Below are positions 43,989 through 52,066 of a stretch of 64,000 nt of DNA, piece by piece. The notes beneath the pieces are model-generated. The model saw nothing but the letters and a program-made list of their open reading frames with translations, was not told the DNA's origin and did not search any database. How positions within the stretch are numbered: position 1 is the stretch's first letter; every line of letters begins with the position of its first letter. The DNA comes from Dictyostelium discoideum (lineage: Eukaryota): contig CM000151.3 of NCBI GenBank assembly GCA_000004695.1, forward strand, positions 2,720,001-2,784,000, read 5' to 3'. A program made the position numbers and the translations under genes.

Positions 43989-45107
43989 TTATAAAATTAA
44001 TTTTCCAGTTTCTTTCCAATTCTTAATAAATGGTAAAACCGAATTTATATAATCATTATTTAAAAAATTATGAGGATGATCATTTTTATTAATATGAGGT
44101 ACAATTATAATATTTTCCATTGATTTACTATTATTTAAATGATTTGCACCTGTTGCAAATTTTGAAATTAAAGTATCTTCTAATTTTATAAAATTTAAAA
44201 CTTGTTTTGATTTTAAAATTTCAATATTATCATTATCATTATTATTATTATTAAAATCATTTGGTATTAAAATGCAACCTGGAGCTAAATATAGAAATGA
44301 AATTCTTGATAATAGATTTGGTGAATATTTAATAATGATTTTAATAGCATTTGTAACGAATGTACCACCATCAGAAGCACAAATTTGTAAAAATGATTTA
44401 TTAGGATTATCAAATAGATAATCAATCCATAATTGAGCTATTAGGATTGAAGTTTTTGAAAATTCACCACCATTTATAGTTAAATGTCTAATTGTATCCA
44501 TACAGAAACCAATTGTATCATTTGGTGAAGGTGAATAATCATCTGGTGAAATTTGATAAGATGGTAAATAAACACAGTGTAAATTCATACCTTCTACCAT
44601 TGATTCTGAAATTTTAGATGCATCTGTACCTGCCCAACCTATTGAATTACCCATACCGTTAACATATCCAATTTGTCCCATTTCATAATCTTTACCAATC
44701 TTTTCACCTAAACTATAATACTGTGTTGAATTTGTAGTTTTATTTCTTTTAAATCTATTTGTAAATTCAATTTTAATTAATTCATTATTATTATTTTCTA
44801 AATCATTTAAATGATTACATCTATGTAATGATCTTATTGTAAATTTTAAATTTTCAAATAAATGATTTTTACCATAAAATAATCCATCAATTCTTGAATC
44901 TTGTTTTTTACATAATTCCCAATAAATGGTTTCAACTTTATATTTTTCATCAATAGTTAATGATTCATAAATTTCTTTTAATTCTTGTAATGAAAATTTT
45001 TCATCATATTTATTTGGTTCAATACATAAATAACTAAAATTTTTATTAATAAAATTTTTAGAATAACTTGCAAATGAATATGCAATACTTGATTTTATAA
45101 ATTGCAT
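43989..45107 (-). CDS. Hypothetical protein
   Basis: 372 aa uninterrupted ORF with Dictyostelium-like codon usage (…GYVNGMGNSIGWAGTDA…). I recognised no domain with confidence. Confidence 0.5.
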   Translation of the reverse strand: MQFIKSSIAYSFASYSKNFINKNFSYLCIEPNKYDEKFSLQELKEIYESLTIDEKYKVETIYWELCKKQDSRIDGLFYGKNHLFENLKFTIRSLHRCNHLNDLENNNNELIKIEFTNRFKRNKTTNSTQYYSLGEKIGKDYEMGQIGYVNGMGNSIGWAGTDASKISESMVEGMNLHCVYLPSYQISPDDYSPSPNDTIGFCMDTIRHLTINGGEFSKTSILIAQLWIDYLFDNPNKSFLQICASDGGTFVTNAIKIIIKYSPNLLSRISFLYLAPGCILIPNDFNNNNNDNDNIEILKSKQVLNFIKLEDTLISKFATGANHLNNSKSMENIIIVPHINKNDHPHNFLNNDYINSVLPFIKNWKETGKLIL

Positions 45108-45355: not shown

Positions 45356-45364
<9 letters not shown>

Positions 45365-48300
45365 TGAAGAATAAAGTTTTAATAATAATGAAGAAGATAA
45401 AACTGATAATGAAGAAACTACCATTGCAGCAGCAGCAGCCATTGGTGGTAAAGACACACCAAAGATTACTCTAAATAAACCAGCGGCTAGTGGAACAGCA
45501 CAAAGATTATAGATTAAAGCTAATGTGAAATTAATTTTAATTCTACGGAAAACTACTCTCGATAAATGAATTGAACGATAAACATCAGTGAGTGAATTTT
45601 TCAATAAAACGATTGAAGATGATTCAATAGCGATATCAGTACCAGTTGCAACTGAAATACCAACATCAGCTTGTGACAATGCAGGTGAATCATTAACACC
45701 ATCACCAACGAAACAAACTACATTACCACTAGCTTGTAAATCTGAAACTTTCTCTGCTTTCTCTTTTGGTATAACCTCTGAATAGATATGATCTTCATCA
45801 ATGCCAACTTGATTTGCAATGAATTTAGCTGCTCTTTTATTATCACCTGTTACCATGTAACATTTTAATCCCATTGATTTTAATTTCTTTATTGCTCTTT
45901 TTGAATCATCTCTTGGTATATCTGAAATTGACATTATACCTTTAAATAAAATAGTGGTGGTACTAGTGGTATCATTGTCATCATTGCTATCACCATATGA
46001 AACATAAATTACAGTTTTACCATTTGTTTCCCATGATTGAGCTAATTCAACGAATTCAATTGGTACATTAATTGAATTATCTTTCATAAATGATAAATTA
46101 CCAATTTTACATTGAATTAATGAATCTACAATACATGATAAACCTCTACCAGCAATACCTTTAAAATCTGAAACTGGTGGGAATTGATAATCTTGAATCA
46201 TTGGCGAACCAATTGGATCTGCACCTTTGGTGGTTAAAGTTTGTTTGCAAAATTGTACAATTGCTTTACCAATTGGATGTTCTGAACCACTTTCAGCTGC
46301 ACCAACAATTTTAAAAAATAATTTATCTTCTTCTTCTTTTGGAGCAGAGTTGTTGTTGTTGTTGTTATCGTTGTTGTTTGATTGATGGTTTACACGATAA
46401 TCAGTTACATTCATTTTACCAGTTGTAATTGTACCAGTTTTATCAAATAAAATTGCAGTTGCTTTATGAGCAGTTTCTAATGGTTTACCACCTTTAATTA
46501 ATATACCAATTGAAGCACCAACACCAGTACCAACCATAACAGCAGTTGGGGTTGCTAAACCTAATGCACATGGACATGCAATTACAATTACAGAGATTGC
46601 AGTTAAGAATGAGTATAGGAATGGTGATGTATTATGTCTCCATTCAGCAGATACTGAATTTGTCTCGGTTACAGCTATCCAAATACCAAATGTAATTAAA
46701 CCTAATAATAGAATGATTGGTACGAAATATTTTGAGATTGTATCTGCTAATTGTTGAATTGGTGCTTTTGAAGTTTGAGCTTGTTGAACTAACCCAATGA
46801 TTTGTGATAATGTATTCTCACTACCGATTTTATTTGCCTTAATAATTAAAACACCATCCAAATTCAATGTACCACCAGTAACTGAATCATTAACTTTCTT
46901 CAATACTGGTATACTCTCACCAGTGATCATACTTTCATCACATGATGATGAACCATTAATAACAATACCATCAGTTGGAATTGATTGACCTGGTATAACT
47001 TTTAATAAATCACCATATGAAATTAATGATGATTGTATAATTTCTTCAGATTCAATTATAATTGGTGCAGTTGATGAGCCATTGTAATTATCTTGATTTC
47101 TTAATGTAACTAATGTGGTTTCTTTTGATTGTAAATTCATTAATTTTACAATTGCTGATGAAGTATGACCCTTTGCAATATTTTCTAACCATCTACCAAG
47201 AATAATGAATGTAATTAAACTTGCAGAAGTTTCAAAGAAATGCATTGCTTCATACATTGGGTTTACTATACCAATGATAATTGAAATTACTGAATAAACA
47301 TAGGCACATGTTGAACCAACTGCAACTAATAAATCCATATTACCATGTAAATTTTTAACGGCAGCATATGAAACTTTATAAAATGTAGCACCACTTATAA
47401 ATTGGACAGGGGTTGCTAAAATGAAACCTATCAATGCTTCAACTGGGAACCCATCAGCTAATTGATAATGTAAGAATTTAATACTCTTTATCGGTACCAA
47501 TATCATTGCAATAATAATCAATGGCAATGTCCATGATATTGAAAATATGAATAAATGTTTCCATTTCTTAATTTCTCTCTTTCTCATTAACGAATTCTTA
47601 ATATCATCAGTCTCTGGATTAAATAATTCACTATCAATATCATAATCTAATTTCAATGATTTCATTATAACTCTTGCTCCGATTTGATATGAATCACCAT
47701 CAACTTTTAATAAAACAATTTGATCACCACTATTTTTATTTTTTTTATTTTTCTTTTGTGATGATGATGATGAGTGTTGTTTAATAATTTCTAAATTTGA
47801 AATACCTTGAAATTTAATTTTTAAATCATCAAATAATAATAATGGTTGTTCATCATTTAGTTTATTGGATTGTTTTTCTTGATAATTTAAAAGTTTTAAA
47901 TGAAAAGTACCAGCTTTTGATTGTTGAATTAATTTAGTTTCAAATCCTAATATTTCAATTGATTCTTGAATTTCTTTAACATCTTTACAAATCGATGAAT
48001 TATATTTAATTTCAGCTCTTTCGGCCAATAAATTAACATTACATTCAATTACACCATCAACACTTTTAATACTATGTTCGACCATACCAACACATGATGC
48101 ACATGTCATACCAAATACACCAATTGATATTATTTCAATTAATTCTAATTTATTATTATTATTATTATTATCAATTTTAATATCAATTGATTCCATTTCA
48201 ATTGATGTTGAATTATTATATTTATTATTATTATTAATTTCAACAACTTCTTCATCTGATGATGAAATTGGTTCAAATGGAGATTTAGTAATACTACTAA

Positions 48301-48605
48301 TATCATTTAATGATGATGAAGATGATGAATTTGAATAATCTAATAATAATGGTGAAGTAACTGTTGATGTTTGTTGTTGTTGTTGCTTTTGTTTTTGACA
48401 TTTAAAACCCAATTTTTCAATTGTTTTTCTAATGGTTCTATCATTTACACTTGCAATAACGAATAATTGTTTGGTTTTAAAATTGATTTTAACTGAATGA
48501 ATATTTTTATTTTGTAATAATGTTGCTTCAATTCTATTGGCACAACCAACTTCACATTTCATACCTTTAATTTCAAATACTCTTTCTCTACTATTATAAT
48601 CACCA

Positions 48606-48640
<35 letters not shown>

Positions 48641-49268
48641 TGGTGATTGTAATATACTACCATCATTTAATAATGGTGTATTTTCCATTGATTCCTTTTT
48701 TTTAAAAAAATTAAATTAATAAAATAATTATTTAATATATTTATATTTATATATTTATATTTACCATTAATTCTGGACATTCTTTTGATTGAATTGCAGC
48801 AACTTCTAAATTTAAAGATTTAAATTGTTTTAAAATTTTAAATAAATAACGATCGACACTACATTCAACTTGAACTATTTGATTGGTATAATCAATGTTT
48901 ACATAGATAACATCGGTTGAAATCTCTTGTAATGTTTGTTTAATAGTTTCAACCAATTCTTCATTACCTTTTAATTGTGGAATGTAGAATCTGAAAAATG
49001 TATTTTCAATTAATCCTGAAATTGGACAACATTTTCTTTCAACTGTAGATTGTTGTTGTTGTTGTCCATCACTTTCAACACCACTATCTCCACAACTTCC
49101 ACTTTCACATTTACAACCATTACTTTCGTTTGGTTTTTGTTGTTGTCCAATGATTGGTGAAGAACAACATGTTGTGGATTTATTTTCAGTTTCAATTAAT
49201 CCTTGTAAAAGATCATTACATGAACATTTAATACAATTGCAATTACATCCGTCAAGTGAAATTGCCAT
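45356..49268 (-). CDS. Copper-transporting P1B-type ATPase (ATP7-like) with an additional upstream exon encoding a Cys-rich, degenerate metal-binding domain
   Basis: Exon 2 is 45356..48694 (1110 aa ORF). It has heavy-metal-associated domains (MKCEVGC; GMTCASCVGMVEH), a CPC motif (IACPCALGLATP), DKTGT phosphorylation motif (FDKTGTITTGK) and GDGVNDSPAL. Exon 1 is 48765..49268, the 173 aa ORF starting MAISLDGCNCNCIKCSCN. The inferred 70 bp intron 48695..48764 (ATG|GTAAAT ... AAAAAAAAG|GAATCAATGGAAAAT) joins exon 1 in frame to the ATPase. Confidence 0.75.
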
Positions 49269-50908: not shown

Positions 50909-50911
<3 letters not shown>

Positions 50912-52066
50912 TCAGACATTGAAAAAGAAGAAAATAAAGATAGTTCACCACCAACTACACCACCAACAGGAGGACCCACAAAAAATAATGATATTGATGA
51001 TGATGAAAAAGAAAATAAAATTGAAAGATCATTAACAGAGAATTTAAATAAAAGATTTTACAACAACAACAACAACAATAGTAATAATTCTAATGGTGAA
51101 GAAATTGAAGATATTGATTATAAAAATTTTAAAACTATTAAAGAATTTGGATATTATTATAATGATAAAGGTGAATTAAGAAGTATTGAAGGTGAAGAGA
51201 AATTTAAATTTATAAATCAACAACAGTATGATAGGTTAGGTGATATTATTGTGAAAACCATTCAAAATAAAATGAAATCGGAACCAATCAATTTAGAGGA
51301 GCATTGGATACCAAAAGGTGAAACCAACCAATGTAACATTTTCACAAGTAAAGATTTCTTTGAAAACCCAACAAAGCTTATGGTATTCATTAATGGTAGT
51401 GGTGCAGTTAAATCTGGTCAATGGGCAAGAAGTCTATGTATAAATGACACACTAAACACTGGTTCGATTTTACCTTATTTGAATGACGCAATTTCAAATG
51501 ATTTCTCAATCATAGTTTTAAATCCAAATTATAATGTATTTGAAGAAAGAATAATTGAAGAAGGAGAAGAACAAAAAGAAAAAGCAAAAGAAGAGGAAGA
51601 AAAAAAAGATGATAATGGTAAACTATTAAAAAAGAAAAGAGTAGATAATTCAATCAAAGGTAGTGAAAATTCAAATAATCATATTTTAACAGTTTATGAT
51701 GAATTTATAAAGAAATCACCAGCAAAAGAGATTGTAATTGTTGCACATAGTTTTGGTGGTGTGAATACTACATATCTATTGGATAATAGAGGTGAAGAGA
51801 TTGCTGATAGATTAAAATCCATTGCATTCACTGATTCCGTTCATTCATTATCACCAAAATCATCATCTTTCACTAAGTCATTCTTTGCTGATGAAAATAA
51901 AACAAAGAATTGGGTAAAAAGTGATAAAAAGTTAAATACAGATTTAGGATTTTCAAAATTACAAGGTTGCAATATAGCCTCATCTGGTCACAGAGTTCAC
52001 GAATTCACTTCCTCAGCTTGTAGAGTACCTTTATTTCAATTTATTTTAAATTCATTAAAAAAATAA
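50909..52066 (+). CDS. Arb2 / FAM172A-like alpha/beta-hydrolase-fold protein
   Basis: 385 aa ORF with an acidic/N-rich N-terminus, then ...LMVFINGSGAVKSGQWARSLCINDTLNTGSILPYLN... and IVIVAHSFGGVNTTYLL (GxSxG-type elbow), as in the FAM172/Arb2 family. Confidence 0.5.

Follow-up and report, generated by a model that had tools for sequence, protein, structure and literature searches.

The 64,000-nucleotide stretch of Dictyostelium discoideum DNA studied here (contig CM000151.3, positions 2,720,001 to 2,784,000; hereafter the window) has a G+C content of about 22% and coding tracts of poly-N and poly-Q. On its minus strand, between positions 45,356 and 49,268, it contains the coding sequence of a P-type ATPase together with a shorter, cysteine-rich open reading frame (ORF) lying immediately upstream. 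We conclude with high confidence that this region is a single two-exon gene, and that it encodes a D. discoideum P1B-1 Cu(I)-transporting ATPase whose N-terminus begins with a module found only in Dictyostelia. This is, overall, the best explanation of the observations described below. The module consists of a cysteine-rich head followed by a domain that has the fold of a metal-binding HMA domain and lacks its metal-binding loop.

The shorter ORF (173 amino acids, minus strand, 49268..48747) ends in ...ECPELMVNINI and a stop codon. An earlier reading of the window, made without database searches (the sequence-only reading), proposed that a 70-nt intron removes this ending and joins the ORF in frame to the pump. 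Each component of that proposal agrees with the DNA: the coordinates and sequence of the ORF, the boundaries ATG/GTAAAT (48765/48764) and AAAAAAAAG/GAA (48695/48694), and the in-frame join. At the donor, the GT at 48764/48763 directly follows the ATG codon of M168; at the acceptor, the AG at 48696/48695 is followed by the GAA TCA ATG (E-S-M) of exon 2. Excision of the 70 nt leaves 168 + 1112 codons in frame, that is, a protein of 1280 amino acids. The intron has stops in the reading frame, and its G+C content is 2.9%, compared with 28–29% in both exons. Near the junction there are only two combinations of GT and AG that yield a stop-free, in-frame product, of 70 nt and 109 nt. We rejected the 109-nt alternative (donor 48803), because it deletes the invariant residues IQSKECP and because no ortholog or database entry agrees with it.

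In an exact-sequence look-up, the joined product of 1280 amino acids is identical to XP_644454.1 / EAL70528.1 / EAL70835.1 / UniProt Q557B5, which is deposited as "P-type ATPase [Dictyostelium discoideum AX4]". By contrast, neither of the stand-alone products, of 1110 and 173 amino acids, is present in the 15-billion-protein collection that was searched. The sequence-only reading had called the upstream exon cryptic, a description that must be dropped, since the exon is already exon 1 of the deposited RefSeq/UniProt model.

The same gene structure can be followed through the dictyostelids. When splicing is reconstructed in the genomic loci of D. cf. discoideum, D. firmibasis, D. purpureum and Polysphondylium violaceum, each is found to have a homologous phase-0 intron of 70–74 nt after ...KECPxxxx, and Heterostelium also has an intron at the site of the D. 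discoideum exon 1/2 junction. In Acytostelium there is no intron at the junction, and the ORF is continuous there. Four environmental or run-assembled contigs from a relative of Polysphondylium (L002–L005; three from JGI, 3300028160/64/65, and one from Logan, SRR8446776) contain a complete ortholog as a single uninterrupted ORF of 1182 amino acids, in which precisely the 71 intron nucleotides of P. violaceum are absent. These contigs represent either transcripts or an intron-less genome, and they contain one ORF either way. A further Logan protein (P0004) stops short of the exon junction and thus gives no cDNA evidence. The beginning of the protein is also conserved among the orthologs, as MAIS, MAIF or MGIS.

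Patterns of substitution distinguish the exon from the intron. Between AX4 and D. cf. discoideum, exon 1 differs by 18 substitutions and one 3-nt indel in 504 nt (~4%), the intron differs at 16 of 73 alignment columns (~22%) with both splice sites intact, and the region upstream of the gene is rich in indels. For exon 1, the ratio of nonsynonymous to synonymous substitution rates (dN/dS, by the method of Nei and Gojobori) comes to 0.16 in the comparison with D. cf. discoideum and to 0.30 in that with D. firmibasis; the HMA-like part alone gives 0 and 0.16. These values lie in the range also seen for the canonical HMA domains and for the pump core. These comparisons indicate that exon 1 is under purifying selection, and that the intron diverges several-fold faster.

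With these data in hand we can weigh two other ways of producing the same ORFs. According to the first, which the sequence-only reading had kept as its alternative, there are two co-oriented genes: one for a soluble, Atx1-like, cysteine-rich copper-binding protein of 173 amino acids (48747..49268), and one for an ATPase of 1110 amino acids starting from the ATG at 48688. Both ORFs are indeed intact as read, and the ATG located 6 nt into exon 2 makes the shorter pump formally possible. However, the gap from the stop to the next ATG is only 58 nt at 3% GC, too short to accommodate both a terminator and a promoter. Moreover, the fusion is found in the protein collection and the separate products are not, the tail VNINI with its stop is not conserved, Acytostelium and contigs L002–L005 have one uninterrupted ORF, and the position of the phase-0 intron is conserved across genera. 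The deposited fusion, the conserved intron and the continuous ORFs thus contradict the two-gene reading, which we consider effectively refuted and to which we assign next to no probability.

According to the second, retention of the intron is regulated, and the locus makes both the full pump and a soluble, chaperone-like, cysteine-rich protein of 173 amino acids ending in VNINI. A retained intron would give an immediate in-frame stop and leave the 173-codon ORF intact, as this idea requires. But no such protein is present in the collection, the sequence of the intron evolves freely, and the mechanism cannot be general among dictyostelids, because Acytostelium has no intron at this site. We consider regulated retention highly improbable.

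The sole intron of the Acytostelium gene (L009 1501-5093) is 68 nt long and lies after amino acid 90, in phase 2, inside the HMA-like domain. Heterostelium (L007 1501-2409) has introns at both the D. discoideum site and the Acytostelium site. Since Heterostelium has both and Acytostelium only one, the comparison implies that both intron positions are old and that they have been lost differentially.

The class of the pump can be assigned from its motifs. In the classification of Argüello, the transmembrane signature of P1B-1 ATPases comprises CPC, N-x6-YN-x4-P and M-x2-SS-x5-[NS]. This Cu(I)/Ag(I) membrane signature is complete in the protein encoded here, as CPC875, NFTLALIYNLCAVP1223 (N-x6-YN-x4-P) and MVVSSLSVLSS1259 (M-x2-SS-x5-S). 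A motif scan also recovers all of the catalytic P-type motifs: the phosphorylation site DKTGT919, TGES759 of the actuator domain, the hinge GDGVND1165, and SEHP972, which is characteristic of P1B N-domains. Pfam identifies E1-E2_ATPase (2e-49) and Hydrolase (1e-26). A P1B-1 pump should also carry, in its N-terminal part, one or more HMA domains with GMxCxxC; here the second HMA domain of the protein (HMA2) has this motif. Judged by these motifs, the pump is of the P1B-1 Cu(I) type.

The first 81 residues of the protein include 12 cysteines, compared with a background of 1.7% cysteine in the long ORFs of the window (binomial P ~2e-8). Five of these, C8, C10, C12, C15 and C17, form the pattern CxCxCxxCxC-N-x-LL (CNCNCIKCSC), which is followed by C34-C35 plus a serine, by C52 and C54 together with a non-conserved C59, and by C80-C81 immediately ahead of the first β-strand of the HMA-like domain. 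We aligned 11 dictyostelid N-termini (alignment A1), drawn from several strains and species of the D. discoideum group and from six more distant taxa; the module is present in all 11. Throughout this alignment the cysteines at positions 8, 10, 12, 15, 17, 34, 35, 52, 54, 80 and 164 are invariant, and C81 is nearly so. The pattern CxCxCxxCxC occurs only once across all six frames of the window. The N-terminal cysteine cluster noticed in the sequence-only reading is real. The cluster contains no histidine, and the residues neighbouring its cysteines are N, S, K and D.

In its high and conserved content of cysteines arranged as CxC, CC and CxxC, the segment resembles metallothioneins. It does not, however, qualify as a metallothionein: it belongs to no curated family, and it is the head of a membrane protein of 1280 residues rather than a free-standing protein. 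Residues 1–168 have no significant match in Pfam, and no metallothionein family of Pfam reaches E ≤ 1. Structure prediction suggests that the segment, of about 80 residues, is probably unstructured without metal.

Two further observations concern variation in this segment. In the sequences P0005 and P0006, from other isolates of D. discoideum, NGCECGDSG stands where AX4 reads NGCKCESGSCGDSG (window 49092-49115), with the loss of C59. In the D. discoideum group, a Q-rich insertion splits an ancestral CxCxxxxCC motif.

The cysteine-rich head leads directly into a domain whose fold is predicted with good confidence. For residues 82–165, AlphaFold2 (AF2), supplied with alignment A1, returns a βαββαβ arrangement with a predicted local distance difference test score (pLDDT) of ~88–91. 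The ferredoxin-like fold of residues 84–165 is closest to that of metallochaperones and of the metal-binding domains (MBDs) of ATPases. Structure prediction had been suggested in the sequence-only reading as a check on a degenerate segment without MxCxxC, and both the fold and the missing motif are as it expected. The β1–α1 loop, which in a functional HMA domain carries GMxCxxC, reads IPQLKGNEE in D. discoideum and contains no cysteine in any ortholog. The last β-strand is followed at once by the invariant C164-P165. When A1 was compared as a profile with the sequences of the PDB, the only matches, to designed armadillo repeats and to an ACT-like domain, were non-significant (E ≥ 0.1). Because the HMA fold is present but the sequence profile and the metal site are not, we describe residues 84–165, on the strength of the model, as a degenerate HMA domain.

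The remainder of the cytosolic tail is also richer than expected. The sequence-only reading had counted two recognisable HMA domains, and Pfam does find two HMA stretches (95.8 bits across the two). That count holds only in part: the first stretch carries a CxxxC variant (MKCEVGC), and there is in addition a fourth ferredoxin-like domain without CxxC. For the first of the two, HMA1, AF2 predicts βαββαβ with pLDDT 80–89, and its motif is kept as GMxCxxGC in all nine dictyostelid orthologs. The fourth domain is predicted as β-α-(α)-β-β-α-β with pLDDT 62–83 and adjoins the first membrane helix; comparison with HMA profiles by hhalign detected no sequence similarity. According to these models, the cytosolic N-terminus consists of the cysteine-rich head, two HMA-type folds without CxxC, one HMA domain with CxxxC, and one canonical HMA domain. 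In the linker right after the junction lies the acidic-dileucine-type motif ENTPLL. The D. discoideum group, D. purpureum and Polysphondylium share it in the form [DE]xTPLL; Acytostelium and Heterostelium lack it. From its sequence it is a possible sorting signal. The coordinates of all of these features are collected in Table 1.

Table 1. Exons, intron and protein features of the ATPase gene, in positions of the window
Feature	Window position	Strand	Details or basis
Exon 1	48765..49268	−	504 nt, 168 codons, phase 0; start ATG 49268..49266
Intron, phase-0, 70 nt, GTAAAT...AAAAAAAAG	48695..48764	−	2.9% GC
Exon 2	45356..48694	−	1112 codons: codons 169–1280 plus stop 45356..45358
Cys-rich segment, residues 1–81	49026..49268	−	Alignment A1
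CxxC-less HMA-fold domain (predicted), residues 84–165	48774..49019	−	Ends in invariant (E/Q)-C164-P165
Acidic-dileucine-type motif E-N-T-P-L-L, residues 172–177, linker at start of exon 2	48668..48685	−	[DE]xxxL[LI] pattern
HMA1, residues 206–269, GMKCEVGC (CxxxC variant)	48392..48583	−	Pfam HMA; AF2
HMA2, residues 354–426, canonical GMTCASC at 363–369	47921..48139	−	Pfam HMA, best stretch 361–420; AF2
Fourth ferredoxin-like domain (predicted), residues 429–526, no CxxC	47621..47914	−	AF2 of residues 196–545
P1B-1 ATPase core, residues ~540–1280	45359..47581	−	Pfam and motif scan

On either side of the gene lie an ORF of 372 amino acids downstream (43989-45107, minus strand) and a divergent ORF of 385 amino acids 1.6 kb upstream (50909-52066, plus strand). 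The D. cf. discoideum ortholog is flanked by ORFs of 386 and 361 amino acids (L001 44-1204, 7169-8277) that are of like size and orientation and have no Pfam hits. This match, which compares size and orientation rather than sequence, suggests conserved synteny.

How widely is the N-terminal module distributed? A search with the full-length protein retrieves orthologs from D. citrinum, D. firmibasis, D. purpureum, Polysphondylium violaceum, the Polysphondylium relative, Acytostelium subglobosum, Heterostelium album and one dictyostelid of EukProt; these cover 91–98% of the query, and all of them start with the same cysteine-rich head. When residues 1–187 are searched exhaustively with phmmer against 1.84 billion representatives clustered at 50% identity, the cluster to which the query itself belongs is the only one recovered at E ≤ 0.001. 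No relative of the module is therefore detectable beyond Dictyostelia, and by the same token it would be missing from the two D. discoideum paralogs. The homolog in Acanthamoeba begins directly with a canonical HMA domain. Word-indexed searches with the N-terminal 187 residues and with A1 returned nothing, not even the protein's own entry; we take this as a limit of the index for a sequence of such composition and not as evidence. Among the orthologs, the Heterostelium album model P0014 (L007; 1353 amino acids, spanning 6.6 kb) departs from all of the others after ...PPMAAAAAMV, and towards the C-terminus the model appears to have been joined wrongly.

What might the cysteine-rich head do? Dense segments of CxC and CC that lack histidine and are disordered without metal are a hallmark of polynuclear Cu(I)-thiolate clusters. 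In Drosophila MTF-1, for example, residues 547-CNCTNCKCDQTKSCHGGDC-565 form a Cu4S6 cage that senses copper load (PMC2396432). More generally, dMTF-1, yeast Ace1/Amt1/Mac1 and the fungal copper metallothioneins all contain short, His-poor segments dense in CxC and CxxC, which are unstructured without metal, fold cooperatively around Cu(I), and sense or buffer the copper load (PMC2396432). The CNCxxCKC of dMTF-1 resembles the dictyostelid CNCNCIKCSC, although this is a likeness of pattern and not a homology. Furthermore, the known Cu(I)4 sensor segments sit in transcription factors or in free small proteins, and not in the tails of transporters. By analogy with these systems, we lean slightly towards the view that the head binds Cu(I) as a cluster; that it acts as a specific regulatory switch is a more tentative suggestion.

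It is important to set out what counts against this interpretation as a whole. The support for splicing of the gene comes from annotation and from comparison among species. Residues 1–168 contain no match to PF00403, and only HMA_2 (PF19991) registers there, scoring 14.4 bits where the cut-off is 30. The alignment by hhalign of residues 84–165 with the HMA domains of the same protein is in register, and it suggests at most a weak homology (E = 5e-4 against HMA1 and 0.04 against HMA2). In the AF2 model obtained with A1, residues 1–79 have pLDDT <50 and are in effect unmodelled. The cysteine-rich segment varies among strains, with C59 and neighbouring residues missing from P0005 and P0006. The gene identification discussed below, atp1 (DDB_G0273675), is one that we infer. 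Finally, motifs of the CC and CxC type are ligands for Zn(II) and Cd(II) too, as in the tails of plant HMA4, and for this reason the metal is not assignable from the motifs alone.

The last point leads to a different reading of the head, as a Zn(II)/Cd site: either a structural element resembling a zinc knuckle or a sensor of divalent metals, comparable to the di-Cys tails of plant HMA2/HMA4 or to the CCCDGAC of ZntA. The core of the pump, however, has the complete Cu(I)/Ag(I) signature of P1B-1 and not that of Zn/Cd pumps (CPx with conserved Asp/Lys). The cluster is also without histidine, AF2 shows no fold resembling a zinc finger, and the spacing CxCxCxxCxC is most like that of Cu(I)4 clusters (PMC2396432). 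We regard a zinc or cadmium site as unlikely.

Palmitoylation is common in cysteine strings close to the ends of the cytosolic tails of membrane proteins, and it could be supposed that the string found here is a site of S-acylation that pins the tail to the membrane or directs its sorting. The predicted disorder of the segment would suit such a role. But the spacing CxCxCxxCxC / CC / CxC…CC is invariant across Dictyostelia, as is typical of metal ligands, whereas in palmitoylated strings the positions of the cysteines can drift and the residues beside them are usually hydrophobic or basic, rather than the N, S, K and D observed here. The segment also lies ~500 residues away from the first membrane helix. 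Palmitoylation thus seems quite improbable, more so than a site for zinc or cadmium, and we continue with the binding of Cu(I) as the favoured reading.

There are precedents for P1B pumps with a cysteine-rich head, for degenerate MBDs and for sensors based on Cu-thiolates, and comparison with known pumps shows which features of the dictyostelid tail are shared. Human ATP7A/ATP7B (with six MBDs each) and yeast Ccc2 (with two) keep CxxC in every MBD and have no metallothionein-like head. E. coli ZntA (PDB 1MWY/1MWZ), a pump for Zn/Cd/Pb, has the segment CCCDGAC followed by an HMA domain. That HMA domain keeps GMDCxxC, and the single seven-residue Cys motif of ZntA is unlike the dictyostelid head. 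In the fungi, the HMA domains of the copper-detoxifying ATPase CrpA of Aspergillus are preceded by additional Cys motifs (PMC6981102). CrpA and Crp1/Crd1 of Candida albicans are copper-inducible tolerance pumps with CxxxC and CxxC motifs upstream of GMxCxxC HMA domains (PMC6981102, PMC3308323), and they share the CxxxC spacing with dictyostelid HMA1. Their motifs, however, are isolated pairs rather than a segment of 12 cysteines, and no HMA domain without CxxC follows them; phmmer detected no sequence homology between the dictyostelid module and the fungal ATPases. In Arabidopsis, MBD3 of RAN1/HMA7 (PDB 8RNZ; PMC12586476) is degenerate and proximal to the membrane, and is thus a better counterpart of the fourth domain (residues 429–526). 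No Cys cluster flanks MBD3, whereas residues 84–165 are the most distal of the domains and are bracketed by CC and CP. Degenerate MBDs can serve as docking or regulatory modules (PMC12586476).

Three putative Cu-ATPases have been listed for D. discoideum: atp1 (DDB_G0273675), atp2/ATP7A (DDB_G0284141) and atp3 (DDB_G0269590) (PMC5758549). The protein studied here has two GenBank accessions (EAL70528.1 and EAL70835.1), and there are two identical copies of it on the 8.48-Mb chromosome 2, which would fit a duplicated part of that chromosome. From these two copies and the gene list of the review, the locus is probably atp1. The review reports that copper salts induce atp1 and attributes copper tolerance to it (PMC5758549, citing Hao 2016).

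If the head does bind Cu(I), we can sketch how the tail might operate. As cytosolic copper rises, the CxC/CC head would take up several Cu(I) ions and form a polynuclear Cu(I)-thiolate cluster, while the degenerate HMA domain, bracketed by CC and CP, would serve as a docking scaffold for it. Folding induced by the metal could then alter how the tail contacts the pump core, HMA1/HMA2 or the sorting machinery, and copper export would be tuned as a result. A simpler option is that the head buffers Cu(I) and passes it on to HMA1/HMA2. The fullest form of the proposal is that a metallothionein-like sensor based on a Cu(I) cluster, seated on a disabled chaperone domain, has been fused to a copper-tolerance pump and switches its activity or sorting, perhaps with the help of the ExxxLL motif; we offer it as a conjecture that is somewhat less likely to be right than wrong.

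The gene model itself was already on record, and the module varies familiar themes in a modest way that is particular to this lineage. What appear to be undescribed so far are the dictyostelid module, its strict conservation, and the presence of four HMA-type folds in the tail. Our literature search found no publication on Q557B5, one review on DDB_G0273675, and no paper describing the N-terminal module. Another review counts only two MBDs in the Dictyostelium Cu-ATPase (PMC3308323), as against the four HMA-type folds and the Cys head found here; the tail of the pump thus has five conserved elements in place of two metal-binding domains.

Since the two-exon model is already deposited, the annotation of the genome is unchanged, and the result is best seen as a small lead for specialists in metal biology. 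If the locus is atp1, then the cysteine-rich head is a clear candidate for a built-in copper sensor or buffer. Should the proposal of a sensor prove true, the head would be a copper sensor intrinsic to a transporter, with no detectable sequence relatives outside Dictyostelia, in an organism that serves as a model for the copper poisoning of bacteria in phagosomes.

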